Part shown: positions 13,529 through 60,023 of the stretch, piece after piece
Layout: every line of letters starts with the position of its first letter
Position numbering within the stretch: position 1 is the stretch's first letter
Source of the DNA: a virus
Length of the DNA: 64,000 nucleotides
Virus record (IMG/VR): IMGVR_UViG_3300020196_000003
Direction: 5' to 3' (one strand)
The notes under the pieces: generated by a model
Seen by the model: the letters and a program-made list of their open reading frames with translations, nothing else
Databases searched by the model: none
Told to the model about the DNA's origin: nothing
Position numbers and translations under genes: made by a program

Positions 13529-14785
13529 TTATTTATGATATTTTAAAACTCTCTTTTTAGTCTCCTCTAACTTTTTATTAAATAATCCTTCCTCCAATTT
13601 GTTTCCTTGGTCATCGAATATTTGACCGTTATCATTTACATAGTATTTAAAAGGAACCTCAACTTCTTTTATTACTTCTACAGGAACCTCTCTAACTATT
13701 TCAACTAATTTATCCACAGGAACTTCAACAATCTTTTCAACTTCCCTAATCACCTCCACAGGAACTTCAACAATCTTTTCAACTTCCCTAATCACCTCCA
13801 CAGGAACTTCAACAATCTTTTCAACTTCCCTAATCACCTCCACAGGAACTTCAACAATCTTTTCATTTATTTGTGTCTCTTGTTGTTTTTGCGTTTCGGA
13901 ACTGAATTTTGATATATCATCTATTAGATAAAAAAAATTTTCAGGTACTTCGATATCTTCGTATTCTTTTTCTTCTTCTTTTCTTCTTCTATAATTTTTG
14001 AATGCTTGGTTTGTTGCAATAACCAAAGCAATTGCTAGAGGATCAAAAACAAAAATTAAAGTTAGAATGAAAAAGTTTGCGGTTTTTTTTATATCCCATC
14101 CAGTTATTTCACTTAAATATTTTATTGCTCCCAATTCACCTGTTTCAATTTCCTTTGATGTTATATCTAAAATGAGAATGTCTAAGTTCGTAATACTATC
14201 ATTTATTGCGTCAATTTTAGACGAAAGTGTGTCTTTACTTTGTTGTGCAATTTTTAATTGTTTTTCAAACGCTTTTCTGTTTCCAGCATTCGCTTTTGTA
14301 ATTACTTGTCCTGATTTTCTATCAATCGTTTGTGTTGTTGTGTTTGTTGAGAGGGCATTTCTTAAATTGGTAATATCTGCATTCAGAACTTTTTTTTCTT
14401 TTTGGTGTTCTTCTTTTATTTTTTCAAATCTTTCTTTCTTTACCTCAATATTATTAATTTTTTTGTTACTAATTTCGAGTCCTGAAATACTTTTTTGAAA
14501 CCCTGTTGCTAACAAACCATATATACCAATTGAGGTCAAAATTGATAATACCAAAATGGCGATTGTTAAATAAATCTTTAAAATACCGTATGTTTTTTTC
14601 CAACTATCGTGAAGATAAGTTGCGATTGCAATTTTAGAAACTTCCAAAAAAGAACCCATAATAATAACAGGAATTGCAACGCCCGAGAAAATAATGGAGA
14701 GTCCGTAAACACTATAATATGCCGCTGTAGATGAAAGTCCAAGAGCACAAAATAGTAATAACCATGATAATAATTTATTATTCAT
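13529..14785 (-). CDS. multi-TM coiled-coil membrane protein with EKIVEVPVEVIREV repeats
   Basis: Three N-terminal TMs, coiled coil, TM with IFVFDPLA, repeat-rich tail. Confidence 0.75.
   Translation of the reverse strand: MNNKLLSWLLLFCALGLSSTAAYYSVYGLSIIFSGVAIPVIIMGSFLEVSKIAIATYLHDSWKKTYGILKIYLTIAILVLSILTSIGIYGLLATGFQKSISGLEISNKKINNIEVKKERFEKIKEEHQKEKKVLNADITNLRNALSTNTTTQTIDRKSGQVITKANAGNRKAFEKQLKIAQQSKDTLSSKIDAINDSITNLDILILDITSKEIETGELGAIKYLSEITGWDIKKTANFFILTLIFVFDPLAIALVIATNQAFKNYRRRKEEEKEYEDIEVPENFFYLIDDISKFSSETQKQQETQINEKIVEVPVEVIREVEKIVEVPVEVIREVEKIVEVPVEVIREVEKIVEVPVDKLVEIVREVPVEVIKEVEVPFKYYVNDNGQIFDDQGNKLEEGLFNKKLEETKKRVLKYHK
13713..13865. repeat. perfect 42-bp tandem repeat, about 3.6 copies
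   Basis: tccacaggaacttcaacaatcttttcaacttccctaatcacc starting at 13713, 13755, 13797 and 13839 (partial). Confidence 0.95.
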
Positions 14786-20808: not shown

Positions 20809-21443
20809 ACTCGTTTGTTTAAATTTGATCCCCTGAGTAGATAAGCCTGATTTTGGTTACCATTCAAAAGGTCTCGGTTTATTTTTTCTAATTGTTTTAT
20901 TTGTTCGTTCTTTTGTTGTAGTTCAGTTCTTAGATTTTGTAATGTCTCTTGAAGTAGTTTTGCTTTGTCATTACCTTTTGAAATGTATAAACTTCGTCTA
21001 AGTTCATCTATTTCTTCATTCTTTTTAAACATTTCATTTTCCAAGTTTACAATTATTTCGCCAAGTTCATTTTCAGTTGTTTTGTCACTAATATATTCTA
21101 TTTTTGTGACAACTTTTTCGACAGGTATTTCTTTAAGTACCTCAACTATTTTTTCAACTTCAACGATTCTATCAACAGAAACCTCAACAATTTTTTCCAC
21201 CTCTTTTATCACTTCAACAGGTATTTCGTTTTCCGCCCATTTTTTTTGTTCCACCCCTGTTTTTAAGTTTTTTTCACTATCATTGAGTGTTTTTTCTAAA
21301 AGTCCATATTTTTTAATATCAAAACCTTGTTTAAAACATAGATACATAAAGTTATCCACATCTTCAATTTCTTGTGATTCACAAAAGGCAGATACCGCCA
21401 GCATTATTTCTTTATTAAAGATTTTGAAGTTTTTCAATTCCAT
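20805..21443 (-). CDS. coiled-coil protein with EKIVEV/IPVE repeats
   Basis: EIPVEVIKEVEKIVEVSVDRIVEVEKIVEV. Confidence 0.7.
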   Translation of the reverse strand: MELKNFKIFNKEIMLAVSAFCESQEIEDVDNFMYLCFKQGFDIKKYGLLEKTLNDSEKNLKTGVEQKKWAENEIPVEVIKEVEKIVEVSVDRIVEVEKIVEVLKEIPVEKVVTKIEYISDKTTENELGEIIVNLENEMFKKNEEIDELRRSLYISKGNDKAKLLQETLQNLRTELQQKNEQIKQLEKINRDLLNGNQNQAYLLRGSNLNKRV

Positions 21444-25039: not shown

Positions 25040-25276
25040 ATGCCAACACAAATTACTGTTAATTTTTCGGGTGGTTCACCTCCATTTGATATTTATACTT
25101 GTGATACGGGTTACACGACTTGTATTTATGTAGACACGGTTGGTTTTGGAGAATTACCATATTCGTTTGACCTTCCATTTGTTTTGGAGGGTATGTCTTC
25201 TGTTGGAGTAAAGGTAGTTGACAGTAATGATTGTTTTGCATCAAATAATTCAATAATAGAATATGGCAAGTTGTAA
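25040..25276 (+). CDS. small Cys-containing putative virion protein, paralog of 33830..34054
   Basis: Shared PPF....CD.....C.Y..T...LP..F.LP...DS..C pattern. Confidence 0.7.
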   Translation: MPTQITVNFSGGSPPFDIYTCDTGYTTCIYVDTVGFGELPYSFDLPFVLEGMSSVGVKVVDSNDCFASNNSIIEYGKL

Positions 25277-26753
25277 TAATTTAGGAGTATTTGCACTTGA
25301 CACTTCAGCTAGTCTAAATCTTTGTCTTTCAGCCCAAACAAATAATGTTTATGGTGATAGTTTAGTAGTTAGTAAGGGAGTTTATTTAGACTCAGGATGC
25401 ACAATGGCTTTAACAACAATTTATTTAAGTAATGGTATTAACTTATATGAAACGAATTCTATAGGAGAAATTATAGGTATTACAGGATGTCCTTGTAATT
25501 ATTTAGGGACTTTTTCATCTGCCTCAGATCCTGACACAAGTTGTTTAGGGCCATTTATATTTGAGGTATATGGTTCAAACCTAAATATCGGAAAAACTCT
25601 ATATTCGAACTCTTCATGTACAATTAATTATATTACAACTTTTTTATCCGACGGTGTTAACGTGTACAGTGTTGATTCAGTAGGAGTTATTGATACTATT
25701 TACGGTTGTTCGTGTGGAGCATTTGTTTGTGTTCATAACGACACCGTTTATGACGACCAATATCAGTTTGCAGGGGTTTTCGATAGTCAAAACTATTACA
25801 CAGGACAAACAACCAATTTTAACATATTTTATTCATCAAGTGAATCTCGTTGGTGTTTAGCCCAAAACCTTGGCGATCCTTGCGATCAGTTTGGTCCCTT
25901 TGGAAGTACTTCGTCCTGTCCTGATTTTGATGACACGGTTGCCTATACAGGATTTTGTGTAACGACCACTACTACAACAAATCCTTGTGTTGATTTTGAT
26001 TTTGATGCGGTTTTTGATTGTTATGTACCGCCAACTCCAACTTTGACTGCAACAAACACGCCAACTCCAACGCCAACTCCAACACCATCAACATCTGCAA
26101 TTTGTGGTGGACTATCTATTGATGTATCGGTAAGTGGTTACACACCAACCCCAACGCCGACATATAGCCCCACCCCAACCCCGACAAGTCAAATTAAGCG
26201 AAACTGTAATTTTAGTGGTGAAGTTGTATTTAATACATTCAATGAAATACTTCAATGTGCAAATAGTAAAAAATTTAAAGATTGTTTCACGGGTCAAGAG
26301 TATTTTTCTTCGGATTTAATTTTAATATCAGAAACAACTTCGAAACCTAAAGAAGGTTACGTATATAATGCAATAATAAACAATCAAGGACGTTGTGTTA
26401 TTTATGAAGGGTTATTTGAAAACATAAGTGGTGTAGATGACGTAATTCTTAAAAATGAAGTTGGTTCTAGAATCGATGGGTCCTGTTTACAATGTATTCC
26501 AAACCTTTCTGCGACCCCAACTCCAACTCCAACACAGACTCCAACACCTACTCCTTCGACGACACCATGTGTATTAGTTAGATGGTATGTTGCAAACAAT
26601 AGTCTAAACGAAATTAAATATGTTTATTATAATTGTGGTGAAGAATTGACTGGCGGACTAAACGCCTATTCCTCCCTCTATGTATGTTCGAGTTCCACCC
26701 CAACATCAAACTCTCCCAACTTCACTGTAACATCATCTCAAACAATTTGTTAA
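25263..26753 (+). CDS. Cys-rich putative fibre/decoration protein with (PT)n linkers
   Basis: Duplicated N-terminal domain, three PTPT tracts, a T6 tract, many Cys. Confidence 0.7.
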   Translation: MASCNNLGVFALDTSASLNLCLSAQTNNVYGDSLVVSKGVYLDSGCTMALTTIYLSNGINLYETNSIGEIIGITGCPCNYLGTFSSASDPDTSCLGPFIFEVYGSNLNIGKTLYSNSSCTINYITTFLSDGVNVYSVDSVGVIDTIYGCSCGAFVCVHNDTVYDDQYQFAGVFDSQNYYTGQTTNFNIFYSSSESRWCLAQNLGDPCDQFGPFGSTSSCPDFDDTVAYTGFCVTTTTTTNPCVDFDFDAVFDCYVPPTPTLTATNTPTPTPTPTPSTSAICGGLSIDVSVSGYTPTPTPTYSPTPTPTSQIKRNCNFSGEVVFNTFNEILQCANSKKFKDCFTGQEYFSSDLILISETTSKPKEGYVYNAIINNQGRCVIYEGLFENISGVDDVILKNEVGSRIDGSCLQCIPNLSATPTPTPTQTPTPTPSTTPCVLVRWYVANNSLNEIKYVYYNCGEELTGGLNAYSSLYVCSSSTPTSNSPNFTVTSSQTIC

Positions 26754-26782
26754 AAAAAATATCGTCCAAAAGGACGATATTT
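26752..26782. terminator. hairpin terminator between convergent genes
   Basis: AAATATCGTCC-aaaa-GGACGATATTT 11-bp stem with an adjacent A run. Confidence 0.75.
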
Positions 26783-26807
26783 CAAATTATCGGTATTTAA
26801 AACGATA

Positions 26808-27131
26808 TTATCTTCGTCTTCTAAAATATCTTGATTCCGACATTGTCTCCATATCCATATCCATTTTGTTTTTACCCCAATTTGGATTTGGTCTTTGACT
26901 TGCAATGTCCATATCATTTTTTTCACTTCTAATTGCAAATTCCAATTCTTTCAAGTCAGACATAATTTCATCTGGTGTTCTTGCACCCAATGTACCACCT
27001 CTTTCTTCTAAAAAACTTCTCAAAAAGTCCATAGCACTTCTTTGTTCTGTTCTTTCATCTTCCATTTCAAAAATGGTTCTTTTAACTATTCTTGATAAAT
27101 CTCTTTCTGTTAATTTAACTATTTTTTTCAT
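26808..27131 (-). CDS. protein with MKKIVKLTE.DL.RIVK leader and Arg-rich tail
   Basis: 107 aa; TATTTAT at 27144-27150. Confidence 0.75.
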   Translation of the reverse strand: MKKIVKLTERDLSRIVKRTIFEMEDERTEQRSAMDFLRSFLEERGGTLGARTPDEIMSDLKELEFAIRSEKNDMDIASQRPNPNWGKNKMDMDMETMSESRYFRRRR

Positions 27132-27171
27132 ATTTTTTTAATTATAAATATAGAGGTAATTGAAAAATTTT

Positions 27172-27780
27172 TTAATTCCAAATTTTTTTGTATCTCATAA
27201 ATCCTAAAACACAAGTATAGGCATCTGTTTGATCAAAATTTTCTTTTTTAAGTGTATTGTTTTTAGTATAATGCCAAGTAATCTGAGGTTCTCTTTTAGC
27301 CACCTTTTCCCAAATTATTATTTTTTTATCAACATCTTTAGGTAGTCCACCAAATAATACAAATTTCTTTTTATCATTTTCTTGGACCAATTCAGGAAAT
27401 GCAAATTTTCTTGAATTATAAGTTGAAATAAATTCAGGAACTATATCTAAAACATTATAAATTTCTTTAAAAATAAAACTATTGAATCTAAGAAGAGTTT
27501 GTATTGTATGAAGATTGTTAGAATTCAAAAGTGGTTCTTCTATTATCACTCTAACTATACCTAAATTTTTATAATATTTTAATTTTTCGGCAAATATTTC
27601 AGACTTAAGTATAAGTTCTTTTAATTTTTCGTCTTCTTTTTCCATTTTGGGTCTTGGTGAAACATGTGTAAGTTCCAAAAGATCTTGACTTTGAATATCG
27701 AATAATGCCCAACCAATAGTGCGGGTTGAAACGTCAAGTCCTAATATTTTAGGGGTGTTTTTTAATTTTGTGTTATTCAT
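27172..27780 (-). CDS. ruvC: RuvC-like Holliday junction resolvase
   Basis: ILGLDVS..TIGW, IIEEP, D..DA acidic residues. Confidence 0.8.
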   Translation of the reverse strand: MNNTKLKNTPKILGLDVSTRTIGWALFDIQSQDLLELTHVSPRPKMEKEDEKLKELILKSEIFAEKLKYYKNLGIVRVIIEEPLLNSNNLHTIQTLLRFNSFIFKEIYNVLDIVPEFISTYNSRKFAFPELVQENDKKKFVLFGGLPKDVDKKIIIWEKVAKREPQITWHYTKNNTLKKENFDQTDAYTCVLGFMRYKKIWN

Positions 27781-27879
27781 TTAAATTTTCTTAGAAAGAA
27801 TTTTCTTATTTGCATATAAGATTCAAAATTTTAACTCACCGTAAAGTTCGGTAAAAAGTTTAAATTGTAAAGTTTCCGA

Positions 27880-30387
27880 TTAAATATCTAATTTAACAAA
27901 ATATTGTTGAATTCCCTGTCTCAAAACTGGCGATTGCATTTTGGACATTATTAAAACATCTTTGTTTTCATCCATCAATGCAATTTCCGTAATGTAAGAT
28001 GGTGTTCCGAAAGTCCAAGTTGGATTTTGCGAAATTATGAATTCATTTACGCTCAAATTAATTTTATATTTCATTTCGTAAATTGTTGCTTGGATGTCTG
28101 TTTCCAAATTTCCATAAAAATAGTATTCATCCCCGAAATTTAAATTTACTCCACTTGCACCGTTTGGTACTAAACTTACATAATCATTTAAGTCATAATA
28201 AGGTGCCGAGTAATAGTTTTCTGAAGTGATTACAAATGTGGTTGCTGTAAGAGATTCTTGAGTTACAAACCCATTTATAAAATCATTTTGTATCTGACTT
28301 GTAAAATCTATCATCCTCCATAAAGTAGGGTCAGGTCTTACACCTGTTGGTCTAATTTGTGCTAAAATTTGAAATTCTTGAGCGTAAAATCCAGCAGGGA
28401 CAACACATGTTGGACATTGAGTTGTGGTTGTTGTTGTGTAAGGATAAAATGTGGTGGTAGTTGTTGTGTTAGGATAAATTGTGGTGGTAGTTGTTGTGGT
28501 TGTTGGTGAATATCCAGGTTGAACTAAACATGGAAATTCACCACCAAATCTTACTGCAACATTTTTTGGTGTGTCTGGTGTGCAAATATTTTCAGTTCCC
28601 ACAACACTCGTGTAATAATTACTATGTAAAGAATTTGTGAATGTATTGGTATTTGACAGTCTATAAGTAACCCATAATGTTTCTGCTCCTCCAGTTAAAA
28701 CACCTGTAGTATTCGAGGTTCCACAAGTATTCGGTGTAATCAATGAAACTTGTGGTGCTGGTAGAGTCCAGTTTCTGTTTGATTTATTGGATAATGCCGC
28801 AACCAATTCTTCGTCATCAATGATGATTAGTTTGGAATCGGGATATACTTTTCCAATTCTACTTGGCAAACCATTAGATTGTGCAAATGTGTCCCACAAA
28901 TTATAATATCTAATACCAAGTTGATTCATCTGTTGTGATATTTTAGACTTAGTAAATTGTACTTGAAATAAATTTTGATTTTCGAATCCTGGTGGATCAA
29001 CAAAAAAAGTTTGCCCAAAACAACATTCAGGATTTTTATGCCACATTATTGTTGGCATGTAAAGTTTGAAATTTCTTGCTTGGCCTTGCGTATTTTCGGG
29101 ATTCGTAAAATCATAAGGTTCTAATGCAAATTTTTCACCATAAAAAAAATCAATTGTTTGATTGGTATAATGAATAATTGCGATTGCTTTTTGTTCTTCA
29201 GGTGTCACTACAATTTTTTCTTTGAAAGAATTATAGTAATAAACATCATCGGTAGAACTTTGACCCTTTGATGAATTATAACCAAAGTATTCTTTTTGAC
29301 CTATATAATTTATTGAGCCGAATTTTGTGTAATCTTGGAATTTAGTCGATATCAAACCAGCAGGGCTTTCAGTCCACGGAATATTCATATTCCATATTTT
29401 AACATCAAACTGATCCGTATCACAAACAGATTCAAAATCAATAACATTTTTATTCCAATGTGGTTCAGGAGTAAAACTATCATATATTGGAACCATCTGC
29501 GGGGGATAAATTAAAGTTCTTGCCAAACAATCGCTTGATAAATTAGTAAAGTCAGGTGTATTTCTGTCTAATGTTAATAGGTTACCGCAAACATCAACAA
29601 TTTTATAAGTAAGAATTGAAAAACAACTAACGACATCTTTTATACAATCTGGTGGTTGAGGTATTGGACATTGAGCGCTTGGTGTGGGTGTTAAACATGG
29701 AGTATGTGTCGGTGATGGTGTAGGTGTAGGTGACGCACATGGTTCTGATAATGTGCTTGTAGGAGTGGGTGTTGGTGTTGGTGTACTGTAAAGGGATGGT
29801 GTTGGTGTTGGTGTTGGATAATTACTACAAACACAATCAGTTTTTGCCCTACCATCGTAATAAATTGTTATAAAATCACCAACATTCGGGGTGTTGTTGT
29901 TTTGAACGTTACAGTCCATTTTTTCGACCAAAATTTGATTTGTTCCTTTAAGAGTGGACATATTAACCACATAATTTGGAGTTATGACATACGAATTATT
30001 TACAAGTGCCTTCCAATCTATTGTAGTTGCGGTTGTATTTCCCGTAAAAAAACCTCTCATTGCGGCCCTATTATAAACAGAATTAATATCAGAGTCCATA
30101 AAAGGTATACCATATATGTTAGTTTCACCTTGATCAACCAAATAAGGATATTTTATATATTGTCGGTTTGACTCAGGAACACCCGAACTATTTTGGGCAT
30201 TAAATTGTGGCTCTAAAACTACAGTATTTGTTTGGTTATAGGTTGTAGGTAATTCATCATATGTAATTTCACTATCTCCAACCGCAAAATAGACAATATT
30301 AAATCTCCCTTCAGACATTCTTTGTCTTCCTGTATCAGTTACCCTTGTATTAACTAAACCTGATGTGTTTTTTATTATATATGCCAT
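27880..30387 (-). CDS. tail-collar/fibre-type structural protein with PT- and T-rich insertions
   Basis: N-terminal TDTGR...FAVGDSE and C-terminal ITEIALMDENKD resemble tail-collar fibre proteins. Confidence 0.6.
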   Translation of the reverse strand: MAYIIKNTSGLVNTRVTDTGRQRMSEGRFNIVYFAVGDSEITYDELPTTYNQTNTVVLEPQFNAQNSSGVPESNRQYIKYPYLVDQGETNIYGIPFMDSDINSVYNRAAMRGFFTGNTTATTIDWKALVNNSYVITPNYVVNMSTLKGTNQILVEKMDCNVQNNNTPNVGDFITIYYDGRAKTDCVCSNYPTPTPTPSLYSTPTPTPTPTSTLSEPCASPTPTPSPTHTPCLTPTPSAQCPIPQPPDCIKDVVSCFSILTYKIVDVCGNLLTLDRNTPDFTNLSSDCLARTLIYPPQMVPIYDSFTPEPHWNKNVIDFESVCDTDQFDVKIWNMNIPWTESPAGLISTKFQDYTKFGSINYIGQKEYFGYNSSKGQSSTDDVYYYNSFKEKIVVTPEEQKAIAIIHYTNQTIDFFYGEKFALEPYDFTNPENTQGQARNFKLYMPTIMWHKNPECCFGQTFFVDPPGFENQNLFQVQFTKSKISQQMNQLGIRYYNLWDTFAQSNGLPSRIGKVYPDSKLIIIDDEELVAALSNKSNRNWTLPAPQVSLITPNTCGTSNTTGVLTGGAETLWVTYRLSNTNTFTNSLHSNYYTSVVGTENICTPDTPKNVAVRFGGEFPCLVQPGYSPTTTTTTTTIYPNTTTTTTFYPYTTTTTTQCPTCVVPAGFYAQEFQILAQIRPTGVRPDPTLWRMIDFTSQIQNDFINGFVTQESLTATTFVITSENYYSAPYYDLNDYVSLVPNGASGVNLNFGDEYYFYGNLETDIQATIYEMKYKINLSVNEFIISQNPTWTFGTPSYITEIALMDENKDVLIMSKMQSPVLRQGIQQYFVKLDI
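28421..28505. repeat. 30-bp tandem repeat encoding TTTTTT(I/F)YP(N/Y)
   Basis: Units at 28421, 28451 and 28481. Confidence 0.8.
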
Positions 30388-30414
30388 TTATTTAATAAAT
30401 ATTCTTATTTTGAT

Positions 30415-32544
30415 TTATTCATTCGGTTGTGGTGTAGGTGGTGAAGTGATGATTGTTTTAGGATTACAACAACTACAATTGTTTAAAACAACATTCGATA
30501 GCGTAAGTGAATAATATCCTAATGCAAATTTACAAAGTCCAACTGGTTGATTGATTATGTTTGTAGAAGTGCTCCCTGATATTACTTGACCACTTGTCAT
30601 AGTTATTGTATTTAAGAATTGTTTTACGATTTGTGTATTATTAATAGGTCCTGTTATACTACACGGACCACCTAATGCATAAACATTGACTAATGTGTTT
30701 ACAAGTGTCATATTCCCAACACCTTGAATATTTGTGAAATTATTATATGTTGGTATTGGAATTAAATTTTGGGGGTAATAATTAAAAGTTGAATTCATTA
30801 CGACATCTAATGTAATGGTCACTCCAATCGGTAGAGACGGAGCGGTTAAAACAAAAGTATTATTGTTGTAATTTATATTGAAATCGATCACATAATCTGT
30901 TATAGGAACATTACCAACCACAATGTTTGTTAATGAACCTGTTACATTATTTGAGTCTAATACAAAAATATCGTAATTGCCAGGTGACAAACTACCGAAT
31001 ATTGGTGACGATTGATATGTAAGTCCTCCATTGATAGAATATTGATAAGGCATTTGACCTCCATTTGCACTTACGGTAATACTTCCATTAGTATTACATT
31101 CTGCGTCATTTACAACAGTTGAAACCACAATTTCATAAGAATCCAAACATTCGCCTTGAGTCATTTGTAAACTTAAAACTTCAGGAGGTCCATAAATTTG
31201 CCAATTACTTAATGGTGGATATGTCGGGTCATTGTTAACAATATTTATTAACGAATTTGAATAACCTGTAAATACCCATTGTGGCGGTGTTGATCCAATG
31301 TTCCAATAAACAACATATTGACCTGATGTTGAAGAAGTACCAGTCGAAGGGGAGGAAGGGGCCGAAGGAGAAGCTGAAGAACTTGTTGATGAAGACCAAC
31401 TTGGTTCTCCATTTATTGTATTACCCGAATCTAACTGTATTTGTAGTAATTCAACAGGAGAATCTGTTTTTGATGATCTTATAGTTAAAGTTACACACAA
31501 TGATGTCAATTCAATAGGTATAGTCGGCTCTTCACAATTACCTAATGTGGATTGAGTTATCGAATATTGTGTGTCAGAAATAATTACCCAATTTCCTGTT
31601 GAACCAGTAGGATATAAATAATCATTTTTGGTTAAAATGTTGTAGGGTTCCCCTTGACATTCCAAAGTAGTACAAAAAACCCACATATTATTATTTTGAT
31701 CCCAAAATACATACCCCAAAAGTTCTACACCATATTGTATGATAAAATAAGGTTTTGTGTTTTTGAAACCTTCGGGTTGTGAATTTATAAAAACAAGTTC
31801 GCTTTCAACCAAACCAGTAAGTACAAAACACATACCAGAAAAATTTGTGGTTTCAGCAGTTAAACTACAAGTTGTTGTCGCCGAAAAATCACCATAGTAG
31901 TCAGTAATTGTTGCCGAATAATCTCCAACCCCCAAATTAGTTAGTGCTGGAGCAAAACTTCCGATTTCCCAAAAAATAATATAAGGCGGAGTTCCACCTG
32001 TAACGATCAATTCTACCGCACCATCAAAAGTTCTATCTGAGGAGGGTTGTTGTGTAAAACAACTAACTCCCATTGGAAATATCGTAATCACATCGCATTC
32101 ATTTTTGGGTTTAACCGAAGGAATACTTGTCGGACATTGATTGTCTTCACAAATATCCGTTAACTTTAAAGGTATCTGAATTTGATCATCAAACTGAGGA
32201 TAAATTTTACTACAAATATTGTAAGTTAAACCTTGTGTAATTGTGTCTACAACAATGTTGTCATTACAATCGACATATGTTATGTCTGTTGTTTGGTCTT
32301 TTGATTTTATAAAATAACAATAACAGTTACAAGTGCAAGTAATTCCTGTATTGATTGTAATTTCATATGTTATATCACATTCCACAATACCTAAATCGAC
32401 AACAAAAAAACAAGTATCAGGTGTTTGTCCAGATATATCAATAGAAACATAATTAAATGATGACTCACTCAAACCAGAAAAATTTGATATAATTGGAGGA
32501 TATGTTCCATCACAGGAATAGAGTATATAACAGTTTTCTATCAT
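30415..32544 (-). CDS. Cys-rich SprB-repeat putative virion/adhesin protein
   Basis: VTGGTPPY...LTNLGVGDYSATITD and NGSITVSANGGQMPYQYSING...LSPGNYDIFVLDSN; Ser/Pro-rich linker. Confidence 0.7.
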   Translation of the reverse strand: MIENCYILYSCDGTYPPIISNFSGLSESSFNYVSIDISGQTPDTCFFVVDLGIVECDITYEITINTGITCTCNCYCYFIKSKDQTTDITYVDCNDNIVVDTITQGLTYNICSKIYPQFDDQIQIPLKLTDICEDNQCPTSIPSVKPKNECDVITIFPMGVSCFTQQPSSDRTFDGAVELIVTGGTPPYIIFWEIGSFAPALTNLGVGDYSATITDYYGDFSATTTCSLTAETTNFSGMCFVLTGLVESELVFINSQPEGFKNTKPYFIIQYGVELLGYVFWDQNNNMWVFCTTLECQGEPYNILTKNDYLYPTGSTGNWVIISDTQYSITQSTLGNCEEPTIPIELTSLCVTLTIRSSKTDSPVELLQIQLDSGNTINGEPSWSSSTSSSASPSAPSSPSTGTSSTSGQYVVYWNIGSTPPQWVFTGYSNSLINIVNNDPTYPPLSNWQIYGPPEVLSLQMTQGECLDSYEIVVSTVVNDAECNTNGSITVSANGGQMPYQYSINGGLTYQSSPIFGSLSPGNYDIFVLDSNNVTGSLTNIVVGNVPITDYVIDFNINYNNNTFVLTAPSLPIGVTITLDVVMNSTFNYYPQNLIPIPTYNNFTNIQGVGNMTLVNTLVNVYALGGPCSITGPINNTQIVKQFLNTITMTSGQVISGSTSTNIINQPVGLCKFALGYYSLTLSNVVLNNCSCCNPKTIITSPPTPQPNE

Positions 32545-32560
32545 GTTTTAATATAAATAA

Positions 32561-33541
32561 TTAAAAACTGTATTTTTGAAGATAAGTTTTCATGTTTTCA
32601 ATATATTTTATTGTTGAGCTTTTAGAATCTATATAATCAAAATAATTTATGTTTTCTTTTAATTTTTTTAATGGGTCTATATTAATATAGGAACCTTTGT
32701 AGAATTTTGTATTTTTTAAGTCTTCAGTAACTCCTGCCATATGTAAAATTGGTTTTTTTTCATAGACTTCAATATTGTCGGTCGCCCATGAAAAATCAAG
32801 TTCTTTTGTTATAACTGTTTGTTTGTTGTCCTTCCACAAGTTCCACAATAAACTCCACATTTCTGCAGTCCAAAATTGAATTTCTCCAGGTGATATTGGA
32901 AATCTTTTTTGATAATCTAACATTTGATTATACAACCCTATTGAGTCTTCATATATTTTTTCCCACAACTCATATGTTGTATCTTTGATAATATACTGAC
33001 CTCCACCTGAATGTAGTCTATTTTTTTCAATAACGTCGATATCAATTTTTACAATTTCTGCCATTTCTTCTAACAACTGATTTCTTGTTGAACTCGGGTA
33101 TTGTTGTTCATATCTTCTACAACAATCAACTATATAGTCATAACTAATATATCCATTCGTGTCTGACAAATAACAAACGTCATCTTGAATCATTTTTTCA
33201 AAATTTGGTAAAGTTCTAAATATTATATCCGCGTCATGTAGAAAAAATAATTTTCCGTTTTGAGGACAATCTTTAATCCACTTTGAAATCAGGTATGGTT
33301 TTATAGAAGGTATGTAATGTTTTTTTTTTCTTTCGTCAAAATAGTAATGGACTTTTACTCCCATTTTTTTTAACTCTGAAGACTCCTTAGATGGCTCTTG
33401 ACTTGGGGTTACAATTGCAAAAATTATATGAATATTTGATGGGTCAATTTTTTTTTCAATAAAGTTGTGAATATAAAGTTTGGCTTGCCAAATGAAGTAT
33501 GGAACATCTGGTTGTGCTGTGACAAATAATAGATTTTCCAT
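32561..33541 (-). CDS. GT-A fold glycosyltransferase, SGT1/HPAT-like peptidyl O-glycosyltransferase candidate
   Basis: YIPSIKP, FLHDADIIFR (DxD), GGGQYII, WTAEMW, ILHMAG. Confidence 0.65.
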   Translation of the reverse strand: MENLLFVTAQPDVPYFIWQAKLYIHNFIEKKIDPSNIHIIFAIVTPSQEPSKESSELKKMGVKVHYYFDERKKKHYIPSIKPYLISKWIKDCPQNGKLFFLHDADIIFRTLPNFEKMIQDDVCYLSDTNGYISYDYIVDCCRRYEQQYPSSTRNQLLEEMAEIVKIDIDVIEKNRLHSGGGQYIIKDTTYELWEKIYEDSIGLYNQMLDYQKRFPISPGEIQFWTAEMWSLLWNLWKDNKQTVITKELDFSWATDNIEVYEKKPILHMAGVTEDLKNTKFYKGSYINIDPLKKLKENINYFDYIDSKSSTIKYIENMKTYLQKYSF

Positions 33542-33575
33542 AAAAAAAAAATAAATAAAAAAACTATAAAGTGAA

Positions 33576-33818
33576 TTAACCTACCTTATCAATTGTAACA
33601 ATTCAATATGGAATTACTGTAACGTTTCATGAAGCCACTTGATGTTTTATAAACATCTGATTATTAACATTACTATTTATCTCCCATTTTAATTTTACAT
33701 TCTTGTTCGCGGTTGTTGTTTGGAAAAATAAGTTCCAAGCAGGAACAACATAAAGAGAATTCTATGATTAACCGATTCGACTTAAACTATTAGGAACATC
33801 TAAACCGTTTTGGTAAAG
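33576..33818 (-). pseudogene. decayed tail-fibre C-terminal domain
   Basis: One frame with 4 internal stops: LYQNGLDVPNSLSRIG*S*NSLYVVPAWNLFFQTTTANKNVKLKWE...VAS*NVTVIPY*IVTIDKVG*. Confidence 0.65.
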
Positions 33819-33829
33819 TCAAAATCTGT

Positions 33830-34054
33830 TTATGAAGAACAGTAAACAATTTCATAAAACAAACACCCCTGACTATCAATGATGGTGAGTTGCATGGCAG
33901 GAGCTGTGTCGAATTGCGAAGGTAAATTAAAAATATGAGGTAAGGTTGATCCTGTTCCTAAATATTGGCATTGATTACCATATATATCACAAGCAATACC
34001 ACTAAATGGCGGGACTAAATCAACTATTGTTGTGACTGAAACTTGGTTTGCCAT
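33830..34054 (-). CDS. small Cys-containing putative virion protein, paralog of 25040..25276
   Basis: 74 aa; shared motif pattern. Confidence 0.7.
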   Translation of the reverse strand: MANQVSVTTIVDLVPPFSGIACDIYGNQCQYLGTGSTLPHIFNLPSQFDTAPAMQLTIIDSQGCLFYEIVYCSS

Positions 34055-36253
34055 TTAACTACAATCTACACAAGAAATGTTATAATCAATTACTAAATTA
34101 ACTTCTATTTCTGTATCTTGTAATGGATTTATAACTTGTGGTTTACAGGATTTATTAATTTCTTCACAGTTTGTTTTTATCGTAATTCTATTAGAAACTA
34201 AATCAATAGTTACGTCCGAAATTCCAACAAAACCATTCAAAATGTCAGTGATCGCTTCCGCCCACTGAATATCGTTAGGATAATCTGTTCCACCATTAGA
34301 TGAATAAAATTCAGTAATGGCGGATTGTGAACCCACTTTAGCTGAAATAGAAAATGTCGCAGAGTCTATAATACAATTGGTATCTCCACTTGTTAAATCA
34401 TAAAACCCTTCTAGAAACATTGATCTAACAGTTCTTTTTGTGACTAATCCACTATCGATAAAAATATTATTACAAACATTGTAATATTGATAATTACTAA
34501 ATTTTTTTGTTCCTTGTAAGGTTGTGTATTTCGTAAGACTACATCCACTTTCGTCAATCACAGTTAAACTATAAGTGCCTGCGGTTAGACCAGTCACAAC
34601 ATAGCCATCTTGTGTCTCTGCAGTACCTCCACTCCAATTGAGAGTAAATGGCGGAGTTCCTTGTGTTATAAATGCGGTTATAGACCCGTCTTTACCAACA
34701 ATTGGTTGGTTAGGAACTAAATTAAAATTTACAGGTTGACTTGTTGATATGTTTATTGGAAATGTTTGAATACAATTAGGTGTTGAAGAATCTTGTATTG
34801 TTAATACATAATTTCCCGTGTATAAGTTGTTAAAAACATTGAATGGACTTGTGACTGTTGTTGGATTTGTACCTGTGGGTCCTACCAAAGTATAAATATA
34901 CGGAAATGTTCCACCAGTTGATGCTTCAACTTGTAAAATCCCATTGTTCAAACCACAAGTTGTTCCTGTCACTTGAGTTGTAGCACTAAATAAATTAACA
35001 GACTCAATTACTGTGGATGTAGTATAAGTACACCCTGTCGATGTGACTGTAACAATATAAGTTCCATTTGATAACCCATTGAAAGTTTGATTAGAATTTC
35101 CCATTAAGCCAACTTTACTAATACCTGTAGAACCAGATATAGAAATTTGTAGATTTAATACGGGACTTAATCCACCATCAACTAAAACATTCAAAGATCC
35201 ATTGTTCACTGAACAAGTAGAATTTGTTGTCGTTAACTGAACGGTTGTAAAAGAATTAGGAGTTGTCAAACTTACTGAATCGTAAATTGTACATAGTCCG
35301 GCATCGGTGACTAAAAAAGAATAAAATCCTGTTGACAATCCTGTAAATGTAACTGATGAACTAAATGTTATTTCAACTTGTCCTGTAGAAGCACTAAAAA
35401 AATATGGTGGAGTTCCATCTACAATTATAAATTCTACCTCTCCATCGTTACTAAAACATGTTGGTTGTGAAATTACAATAAAACCACCCGAAGTTAATGG
35501 GGCAACTGAATTAACCGTAAATGATTGTGAGGAGGAACAACCAATAGAATTAGTAACTGTTGCGATATATACACCTGCCGTTAGACCGGTAATTGTAGAC
35601 CCTGTTTGACCATTTGCGTTGGAAGACCACGTTATTGTGTAATCGACTGATGGCGATGTTAAACCTGTGATAAATATTTTACCACTTCCATTTCCAATAC
35701 AACTAGCATCATCAACAACATAACCACCAAAGGTGATACCTGATGATGGATTTAAAATTACTGAAGCGGTAATTCCATTACATCCTCCACCATCATCGGC
35801 AACTATGTAGTAAGTTCCCGCAGACAGACTTGTGAAATCTAAATAGTTTGTGGTAGAAATTCCACTAGTTATTAGATTATTCGTAATGTCATAAAGTAAA
35901 AATGTTGTAAAACCATAAACGGATGAGGTGAATCCTGTTATACTTCCGTTGTTGAATCCACAACTAGTATTTGTAGAATCAATTGTGGCGGTTGTTCCTG
36001 TTGAAATATAGACTGTAATTATAATTGAAGCCGAAGTACCGTCAGTTATTTGTAAAAAGTAAGTTCCACCTGATAAACCAGTTACCCTATATTCGTATGG
36101 TTCGGTTAGAGCTGAAGTTGGTAGTGGACAACCTGCGGTTATACAGTTTACCGCAAATGGGGGTGTTGATCCTGTGACGCTGAAAAACAGCTCAGCTGAG
36201 TTTGTATTTGTACAATCACCTCTTACACTATATTGTTCAATCGAAATACTCAT
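34055..36253 (-). CDS. SprB-repeat adhesin-like putative tail protein
   Basis: About 7 repeats of C..NNGSI.....GGT.P......TGL.AGTY.L.V.D..GC. Confidence 0.8.
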   Translation of the reverse strand: MSISIEQYSVRGDCTNTNSAELFFSVTGSTPPFAVNCITAGCPLPTSALTEPYEYRVTGLSGGTYFLQITDGTSASIIITVYISTGTTATIDSTNTSCGFNNGSITGFTSSVYGFTTFLLYDITNNLITSGISTTNYLDFTSLSAGTYYIVADDGGGCNGITASVILNPSSGITFGGYVVDDASCIGNGSGKIFITGLTSPSVDYTITWSSNANGQTGSTITGLTAGVYIATVTNSIGCSSSQSFTVNSVAPLTSGGFIVISQPTCFSNDGEVEFIIVDGTPPYFFSASTGQVEITFSSSVTFTGLSTGFYSFLVTDAGLCTIYDSVSLTTPNSFTTVQLTTTNSTCSVNNGSLNVLVDGGLSPVLNLQISISGSTGISKVGLMGNSNQTFNGLSNGTYIVTVTSTGCTYTTSTVIESVNLFSATTQVTGTTCGLNNGILQVEASTGGTFPYIYTLVGPTGTNPTTVTSPFNVFNNLYTGNYVLTIQDSSTPNCIQTFPINISTSQPVNFNLVPNQPIVGKDGSITAFITQGTPPFTLNWSGGTAETQDGYVVTGLTAGTYSLTVIDESGCSLTKYTTLQGTKKFSNYQYYNVCNNIFIDSGLVTKRTVRSMFLEGFYDLTSGDTNCIIDSATFSISAKVGSQSAITEFYSSNGGTDYPNDIQWAEAITDILNGFVGISDVTIDLVSNRITIKTNCEEINKSCKPQVINPLQDTEIEVNLVIDYNISCVDCS

Positions 36254-59351: not shown

Positions 59352-60023
59352 TTAAGAGTTATATTTGTTCAATAATATGTCGTCTTCATCGTCCATCGGT
59401 TCATTGAAAGATTTTTCAATTTCAGATGGGCTAAAACTTTCAACTTCATCTTGTGTTAGTACGTACTCATTTTTTCCCGTTTTCTCCATTTCTTGTTGTT
59501 TATCTTGGAAAAAGTCGGCCAAATTTTGTTTGAATGGCCCTGAGTCTAGTGATCTTAGTTGTAATTTTTCTTGAGCCGTCTTTGGTCTATATTTTTCGAC
59601 CTTTGTGTCTAATGTGTCAAGTTTAGAGACAATAGAATCCATTTCCGCCAATTTTTCTTCCATTTTTTTTATTTGGTCGAACAAATTAGTAAAATATTCT
59701 TCTTGTTTATCTGCCATCGTTTTTTGTGAATCAACCAAGTCTGTTATGTCAAGTTCTTCAGTTTCTCCTTCGGCCCCTTCCTCCCCTTCGACTGGTACTT
59801 CTTCAACATCAGGATCTGTTTTAGGATCTATAGGTGCCCCCTCAGCTTCGGCTGGCGGTGTGGGTGGTGCTCCTGCCGCTGCTGGATCTACGGGTGGTGC
59901 TCCTGCCGCTAACGGATCCGCAGCTGGTTCTGCGGGTGGTGGTGGAACCTCTTGTTCCATTATGTAATTGTTGATAGACCTATATCTAGCAAGTTCATTT
60001 AATATTTTTTCGTCTAATTTCAT
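59352..60023 (-). CDS. Pro/Ala-rich acidic coiled-coil protein, putative head/scaffold-associated
   Basis: ILNELAR...YIMEQ leader, P/A repeats, coiled coil. Confidence 0.7.
   Translation of the reverse strand: MKLDEKILNELARYRSINNYIMEQEVPPPPAEPAADPLAAGAPPVDPAAAGAPPTPPAEAEGAPIDPKTDPDVEEVPVEGEEGAEGETEELDITDLVDSQKTMADKQEEYFTNLFDQIKKMEEKLAEMDSIVSKLDTLDTKVEKYRPKTAQEKLQLRSLDSGPFKQNLADFFQDKQQEMEKTGKNEYVLTQDEVESFSPSEIEKSFNEPMDDEDDILLNKYNS

Follow-up and report, generated by a model that had tools for sequence, protein, structure and literature searches.

A phage-encoded glycosyltransferase predicted to modify threonine-rich tracts of virion proteins

What does a lone glycosyltransferase gene do amid the structural genes of a phage? 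The question is raised by the virus record IMGVR_UViG_3300020196_000003 of IMG/VR, of which a stretch of 64,000 nucleotides (hereafter the window) was analysed. An open reading frame (ORF) for a protein of 326 amino acids (aa) at 32561-33541 is, as an earlier note on this DNA had stated, the sole enzyme-like gene in the block at 27.9-51.9 kb: no further enzyme family was found there, the Pfam and PHROG matches being SprB repeats, Baseplate_J, gp25 and, weakly, PKD. The note had proposed that the phage O-glycosylates its own fibre or baseplate linkers. Phylogenetic profiles support the part of this idea that concerns Thr tracts of the virion, whereas the carriers that can be identified are capsid, tail tube and sheath. 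We consider it quite probable that the enzyme glycosylates Thr-rich tracts of the phage's own virion proteins during assembly, by a mechanism that is predicted as a whole; a putative sugar coat on the virion is, judging from sequence, the most likely product.

The case for a glycosyltransferase is built on motifs and fold. The motifs YIPSIKP, LHDADIIFR, GGGQYII and WTAEMW were confirmed in this order at aa 76, 101, 179 and 224, and in an alignment of 136 diverse homologues D103 and D105 are invariant and H267 nearly so. The predicted model, with a predicted local distance difference test (pLDDT) score of 97, is a single Rossmann-like alpha/beta domain in which the DxD follows core strand 98-101. 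Its best structural match is glycogenin (Z 15.5; 228 residues aligned at a root mean square deviation, rmsd, of 3.5), followed by UGGT (14.1), LgtC (13.9) and GlyE (13.4), all over 220-240 residues, and Foldseek concurs. On the strength of this model, the protein is a glycosyltransferase (GT) of the GT-A fold in the GT8/GT24 neighbourhood, with a predicted activity. It has no hydrophobic helix or membrane segment (peak 19-residue hydropathy 0.74), strand 1 beginning as early as residue 5. Searches with the sequence against Pfam, NCBIfam and PDB gave no match; the profile of PHROG 4417, listed as unknown function under 'prophage pi2 protein 34', matches over its full length (E 1.2e-65, positions 3-290 of 293). 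Longer homologues carry fused glycosyltransferase domains (PF11397, O-FucT and GT6; more weakly GT61 and GT25).

The acceptor is suggested by what accompanies the gene in other phages. Homologues 24-38% identical to the window enzyme are present in 77 cultured-phage records, with Lactococcus, Lacticaseibacillus, Enterococcus, Staphylococcus, Clostridium and Chryseobacterium as hosts. In all nine cultured phages inspected, the gene immediately preceding that of the enzyme bears a poly-Thr tract, either in itself or in its frameshift extension; the carrier is annotated as a major capsid, major tail or small tail/decoration protein in eight and is unannotated in MA9V-3. Relatives were then collected via structural anchor genes and scored blind to the enzyme. 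Lacticaseibacillus capsid loci comprised 29 with enzyme and tag, none with the enzyme only, two with the tag only and 21 with neither; the corresponding counts were 8, 0, 0 and 33 for Lactococcus tube loci and 6, 0, 0 and 10 for Enterococcus tube loci. Pooled over the three anchor sets, 43 of 43 enzyme-positive loci are tagged and 64 of 66 enzyme-negative loci are untagged, raw counts that overstate independence because kin share traits. Between Lacticaseibacillus capsids of 94-99% identity the tail is precisely what differs, and on the capsid tree no fewer than three changes are required to explain the trait. Recombinants occur (L315, L318 and L274). The tags are found on two or three separate genes 2-3 kb apart, so simple hitchhiking explains the pairing poorly. 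Likewise, a Thr tract lies close to 27 of the 32 single-domain homologues found in bacterial assemblies. Not one of the 397 distinct Thr runs repeats a single codon throughout, and the tracts are therefore kept at the protein level.

As an observation in its own right, poly-Thr frames in SA2, VPE25 and bIL285 share DNA with the ends of tail or capsid genes, in a different reading frame (L087:5661-5924, L088:5600-6000 and L082:5940-5990), an arrangement which suggests that frameshifting could make longer tags on a fraction of the subunits.

The same association is seen among close relatives of the phage itself. A 117-kb JGI contig holds identical DNA (100% over 21 kb and 14.6 kb) and, when followed past the window end, reaches a tail sheath gene after ~18 kb; since relatives have genomes of 270-320 kb, the phage is a jumbo myophage. 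The enzyme gene occupies the same position in most of the 80 loci retrieved with the 835-aa protein encoded nearby. Among jumbo loci with full context, all 43 that have the enzyme also have runs of five Thr (T5), and the three that lack it have none. The sheath behaves similarly: a ~40-aa Thr/Pro (T/P) tract is present in four of four enzyme-positive genomes, the sheath of this phage has a PT-type tract at aa 292-328, and such a tract is missing both from an enzyme-less complete genome of 304 kb and from a second, partial enzyme-less record. Enzyme-less relatives also have no poly-Thr tract in their homologues of the 835-, 496- and 709-aa proteins of the window. In the enzyme-less genome, the sheath match (L537, G001 sheath) contains one TAA stop, probably at the start of the match.

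Within the window, the PT and Thr tracts are genuine, with six T6-coding matches against 0.01 expected and eight (PT)3-coding matches against 0.00. The PTPT and TTTTTT repeats noticed earlier in the 835-aa protein resolve into one PT tract and one T8/T6/T6 tract, and the latter, by its distribution among relatives, is probably the best candidate acceptor inside the window (Table 1). The 496-aa protein does have the three PT tracts ascribed to it, plus a T6 run, but its gene is on the strand opposite to the structural block, with a RuvC-like gene and an ORF of 107 aa lying between the two. The 732-aa protein, whose gene falls within the range given in the earlier note, has neither (PT)n nor poly-Thr. 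As for the idea that the tract proteins are fibre or baseplate parts, the model of the 835-aa protein is poor at pLDDT 47, its best structural matches, at Z about 6, give no identity, and its matches in the Atlas are unnamed viral clusters only; a role as fibre stalk is one that its genomic context may suggest.

The remaining low-complexity element, a Ser/Pro tract SSSASPSAPSSPS in the 709-aa gene, had been taken as a sign of an extensin-like acceptor. The tract is present, but it is an in-frame insertion of 60 nt (20 codons) private to this phage: neither the closest relative, whose neighbouring proteins are 93-97% identical, nor any of ten further loci has it. It matches a site 28 kb away in inverted orientation at 63 of 64 bases, the longest inverted repeat of the window, and thus reflects a recent copy event and is no evidence for a Ser/Pro acceptor. 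With no counterpart in the 11 relative loci, its candidacy as a conserved acceptor was rejected, and Thr in poly-Thr or T/P tracts is the likelier target. An assembly artefact is unlikely as well: contigs from four runs contain both junctions, at the depth of the flanks, and no skipping joint is listed, although these runs may all come from one sampling campaign. The inverted copy is apparently fixed in the population and offers an example of how a low-complexity tract may originate.

Table 1. Positions of the enzyme, the tract-bearing proteins and associated features in the window
Feature	Position	Strand	Remark
GT-A glycosyltransferase of PHROG 4417, soluble, 326 aa; proposed to O-glycosylate Thr in virion proteins	32561..33541	-	
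DxD motif region (D103, D105)	33215..33241	-	invariant across 136 diverse homologues
W-x-x-E/D-M-W motif, aa 224-229	32855..32872	-	aligns with W-E-S-D-M of bacterial PF23452 proteins
835-aa conserved phage protein, probably structural, two tracts	27880..30387	-	identity suggested by context
Poly-Thr tract T8/T6/T6, aa 623-660 of the 835-aa protein	28408..28521	-	without counterpart in enzyme-less relatives
(PT)n tract, aa 187-237 of the 835-aa protein	29677..29829	-	kept in enzyme-less relatives; weaker candidate
496-aa Cys/Thr-rich protein	25263..26753	+	T6 at 25962-25979; PT tracts at 26028-26105, 26127-26195 and 26499-26576
SprB-repeat protein of 709 aa, next gene downstream of the enzyme	30415..32544	-	no conserved tract; Thr tract in some relatives
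732-aa SprB-repeat protein, upstream of the enzyme	34055..36253	-	Ser/Thr-rich overall, no tracts
In-frame insertion giving the Ser/Pro tract SSSASPSAPSSPS	31322..31385	-	inverted copy of 59750-59813
Insertion donor	59750..59813	+	antisense of acidic Glu/Gly linker in ORF 59352-60023
RuvC-like resolvase gene	27172..27780	-	bounds the structural block; outside the proposed system

Taken together, a mechanism can be proposed in which the phage makes a cytoplasmic enzyme, predicted from fold and DxD in silico to be a metal-dependent GT-A glycosyltransferase. Using a nucleotide-sugar donor that the host would supply, it would transfer sugar to Thr hydroxyls of low-complexity, Thr-rich virion tracts during assembly, co-occurrence being what points to this acceptor. 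No gene for sugar-nucleotide synthesis was seen in the window. Likely acceptors here would be the T/P tract of the sheath, the poly-Thr tract in the 835-aa protein and, in the 496-aa protein, the Thr/PT tracts; siphophages that infect Firmicutes would be modified on poly-Thr tails, which are carried by major capsid, tail tube and small decoration proteins. The outcome would be a mucin-like glycan coat over many repeated subunits, which might serve in shielding from proteases or host recognition, in solubility or in adhesion. The module is dispensable, since close relatives do without it.

Several observations weigh against this proposal. Enzyme absence was mostly scored within 6-10 kb of the anchor gene, two recombinants (L315 and L318) retain the tube tag without the enzyme, and two of the bacterial-assembly loci, L168 and L122, are exceptions in which no T5 run accompanies the enzyme. 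Among the jumbo phages, the enzyme-less records with checkable genome context represent one lineage, and the complete enzyme-less genome has one T7 elsewhere; the virion placement of the tract proteins in the window, moreover, comes from context. Finally, enzyme-less relatives keep (PT)n in their homologues of all three proteins. Co-occurrence with PT-rich genes, which had been suggested as a check, therefore splits: the enzyme tracks Thr runs and the sheath T/P tract, while (PT)n persists without it, which makes the former strong candidates and leaves (PT)n ambiguous. It is accordingly a real possibility, at somewhat under an even chance, that the family glycosylates poly-Thr tags elsewhere, whereas here the (PT)n tracts are stiff linkers left unmodified and modification is limited to the Thr runs or the sheath tract. 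The accidental nature of the Ser/Pro tract fits this restriction as well. Yet PT and poly-Thr interchange at equivalent positions among enzyme-positive phages, as they do in relatives of the 496-aa protein, and sheath tracts of the PT-only type are also gone from the enzyme-less lineage. Such a restriction would narrow the proposal rather than replace it.

Two further explanations would replace it in whole or in part. The enzyme could act on the phage DNA or on a polymer of the host surface, in the latter case to mask receptors or exclude superinfection, and the Thr tracts would then be unmodified linkers that travel along in a recombining cassette; in siphophages one tag directly adjoins the enzyme gene, so linkage is to be expected, and the best structural matches include LgtC and WbbM. 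The earlier note had held that best matches to lipopolysaccharide (LPS)- or DNA-modifying enzymes would speak against its own proposal, and superficially this is what these two LPS enzymes do; protein-modifying glycogenin, UGGT and GlyE are equally represented, and all of these PDB matches are at fold level. Such a cassette would not readily account for tags on non-adjacent genes, including a jumbo sheath gene ~49 kb away, nor for a pairing that recurs with different carriers in unrelated siphophage, herellevirus and jumbo lineages, and an enzyme gene that sits within head-tail operons and encodes no membrane segment fits it poorly; we regard it as quite unlikely. It is very unlikely, too, that the same Thr tracts receive something other than a simple O-linked sugar, such as the sugar-phosphate of Stealth-family enzymes: although Stealth_CR2 is weakly matched by 3 of the 136 family members (best E 0.005) and Stealth-type structures match at Z about 9.6, GT8/GT24-type enzymes score ~5 Z units higher and the motif order agrees with PF23452 proteins. 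Glycosylation of virion Thr tracts thus remains the preferred explanation.

The wider setting of the locus can be described briefly. The window has a low GC content of about 31% and encodes replication and baseplate genes; its DNA is also present, identical, in lake-water metagenomes, no RNA dataset is among those listed as containing it, and a promoter and terminator scan gave chance level only. Upstream of the enzyme, 33542-33829 is a 290-nt gap between a 74-aa ORF and the enzyme gene, a place where most relatives have at least one variable long gene (300-1100 aa, Gly/Ser/Thr-rich). In one relative (L466:2705-3643), a GT9-family glycosyltransferase gene lies close upstream of the enzyme and is a possible chain-extending partner. 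The small Cys-containing ORFs at 25040-25276 and 33830-34054 may be paralogues, the ORF at the second position in L466 matching the first best. Some relatives (L472, L481, L482, L493 and L499-L502) have the block in inverted orientation from the RuvC gene; there, the counterpart of 34055-36253 is not always beside the enzyme, and the enzyme, 709-aa and 835-aa genes remain together. Further away, 42-bp tandem repeats lie at 13659-13865 in a 418-aa ORF, with weaker likeness to 21139-21227.

Homologues are not confined to phages. Loci on Bacteroidota chromosomes (L105, L118, L131, L135, L146 and L157) have fused homologues in clusters resembling those for ribosomally synthesized and post-translationally modified peptides (RiPPs), with double-glycine leader peptides and HlyD, LanC-like and grasp-with-spasm genes; peptidase-containing transporters occur at 16 of 71 loci. 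In one precursor-like protein the leader is followed by a Thr run, as would suit a peptide acceptor, and the clusters are candidate glycopeptide pathways. More broadly, PHROG 4417 might be a portable one-enzyme O-glycosylation module of the HPAT/SGT1 superfamily, acting on Thr tags on any virion protein and also serving as a RiPP-like peptide glycosyltransferase in Bacteroidota, a generalisation that we hold tentatively and put just short of an even chance. If it holds, mucin-like glycosylation would be widespread among phages that infect dairy, gut and freshwater bacteria, and plant extensin enzymes would have a prokaryotic or viral counterpart.

Should the proposal itself prove true, virion glycosylation would extend to phages of the six host genera listed above and to abundant lake jumbo phages. 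An unannotated PHROG would gain a function, the poly-Thr tails of capsid and tail proteins would be explained, and a soluble enzyme of the bacterial cytoplasm together with a short tag would become usable for making mucin-like O-glycans. Food-grade phage-host pairs and the natural plus/minus pairs of nearly identical capsids make the proposal directly testable.

How, then, does the system compare with known ones? The PHROG 4417 members bIL285 Orf45, phage 1706 Orf14 and phiFL1A gp51 belong to the same family; the window member differs in residing in a jumbo myophage and in being accompanied by internal T/P tracts instead of C-terminal tails. With the GT8/GT24 clade (glycogenin, the UGGT catalytic domain, LgtC, GlyE and the PBCV-1 capsid glycosyltransferase 2p6w) it shares fold and DxD at Z 11-15.5 and a TM of 0.45, but identity is 7-10% at an rmsd of 3.5-4 Å and no PDB sequence matches, so neither donor nor acceptor can be inferred from those enzymes.

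The earlier label 'SGT1/HPAT-like' is best kept for a remote relationship, one traced by way of bacterial PF23452 proteins. The enzyme profile aligns with these proteins by hhalign (E 1.8e-5, probability 78%, 235 columns, 13% identity) with the motifs in register; the bridging bacterial family passes the Pfam cut-off for HPAT, and PF23452 is found in 10% of the members of a neighbour cluster in the Atlas. The gathering cut-off of PF23452 is not reached by the family itself, with no match for the window protein and subthreshold ones for 2 of 136 homologues (best E 0.033). A PF23452 search of five jumbo genomes gave no match anywhere, controls included, and no named plant proteins are among the matches listed for the bridging family. 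In two Acidimicrobiia loci (L091:1214-2086 and L095:1178-2062), the family passing the HPAT cut-off lies near a 1000-aa fusion of the enzyme with a PF11397 GlcNAc-transferase domain, and some of its members carry a PF05402 (PqqD) domain. Like the plant hydroxyproline O-arabinosyltransferases HPAT1-3 (CAZy GT95, PF23452) and the serine alpha-galactosyltransferase SGT1 (GT96), whose acceptors are hydroxyproline or a Ser beside it and with which a common motif order can be traced via the bacterial PF23452 proteins, the phage enzyme would initiate protein O-glycosylation of low-complexity, hydroxyl-rich tracts. The plant enzymes, however, are membrane-anchored in the endoplasmic reticulum (ER)/Golgi and require hydroxyproline (PMC4908140), whereas the phage enzyme has no anchor and many phage tags are proline-free; that the co-varying tags are mostly pure Thr argues against hydroxyproline dependence. 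Given the unmet cut-off, the missing anchor and the hydroxyproline requirement of the plant enzymes, membership in GT95 or GT96 was not borne out by the tests run, and remote homology is what the profiles point to.

Literature searches on the PHROG 4417 family, poly-threonine tags and HPAT in phages found nothing relevant. Virion glycosylation as such is established for the mycobacteriophages Che8, Corndog and Myrna (Freeman et al. 2023, doi 10.1016/j.chom.2023.05.028, as cited in PMC12363180 and PMC13445384), and it is for mycobacteriophages that the literature reached describes glycosylated particles of tailed phages, with lowered antibody recognition (PMC12363180, PMC13445384). There, O-glycosylation of capsid and tail-tube subunits has been attributed to phage-encoded glycosyltransferases, either as a proposal or by demonstration, as suggested here. 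The differences are that Che8 gp108-110 and Corndog gp36-38 are unmatched by the enzyme profile (best 4.2 bits with filters off), no mycobacteriophage being among the tblastn matches listed for the enzyme, that three enzymes are involved there and one here, in other hosts, and that a poly-Thr tail is absent from both the capsid protein and gp49 of Corndog. Set against these systems, the novelty would lie in an apparently distinct enzyme family combined with a dedicated Thr tag.

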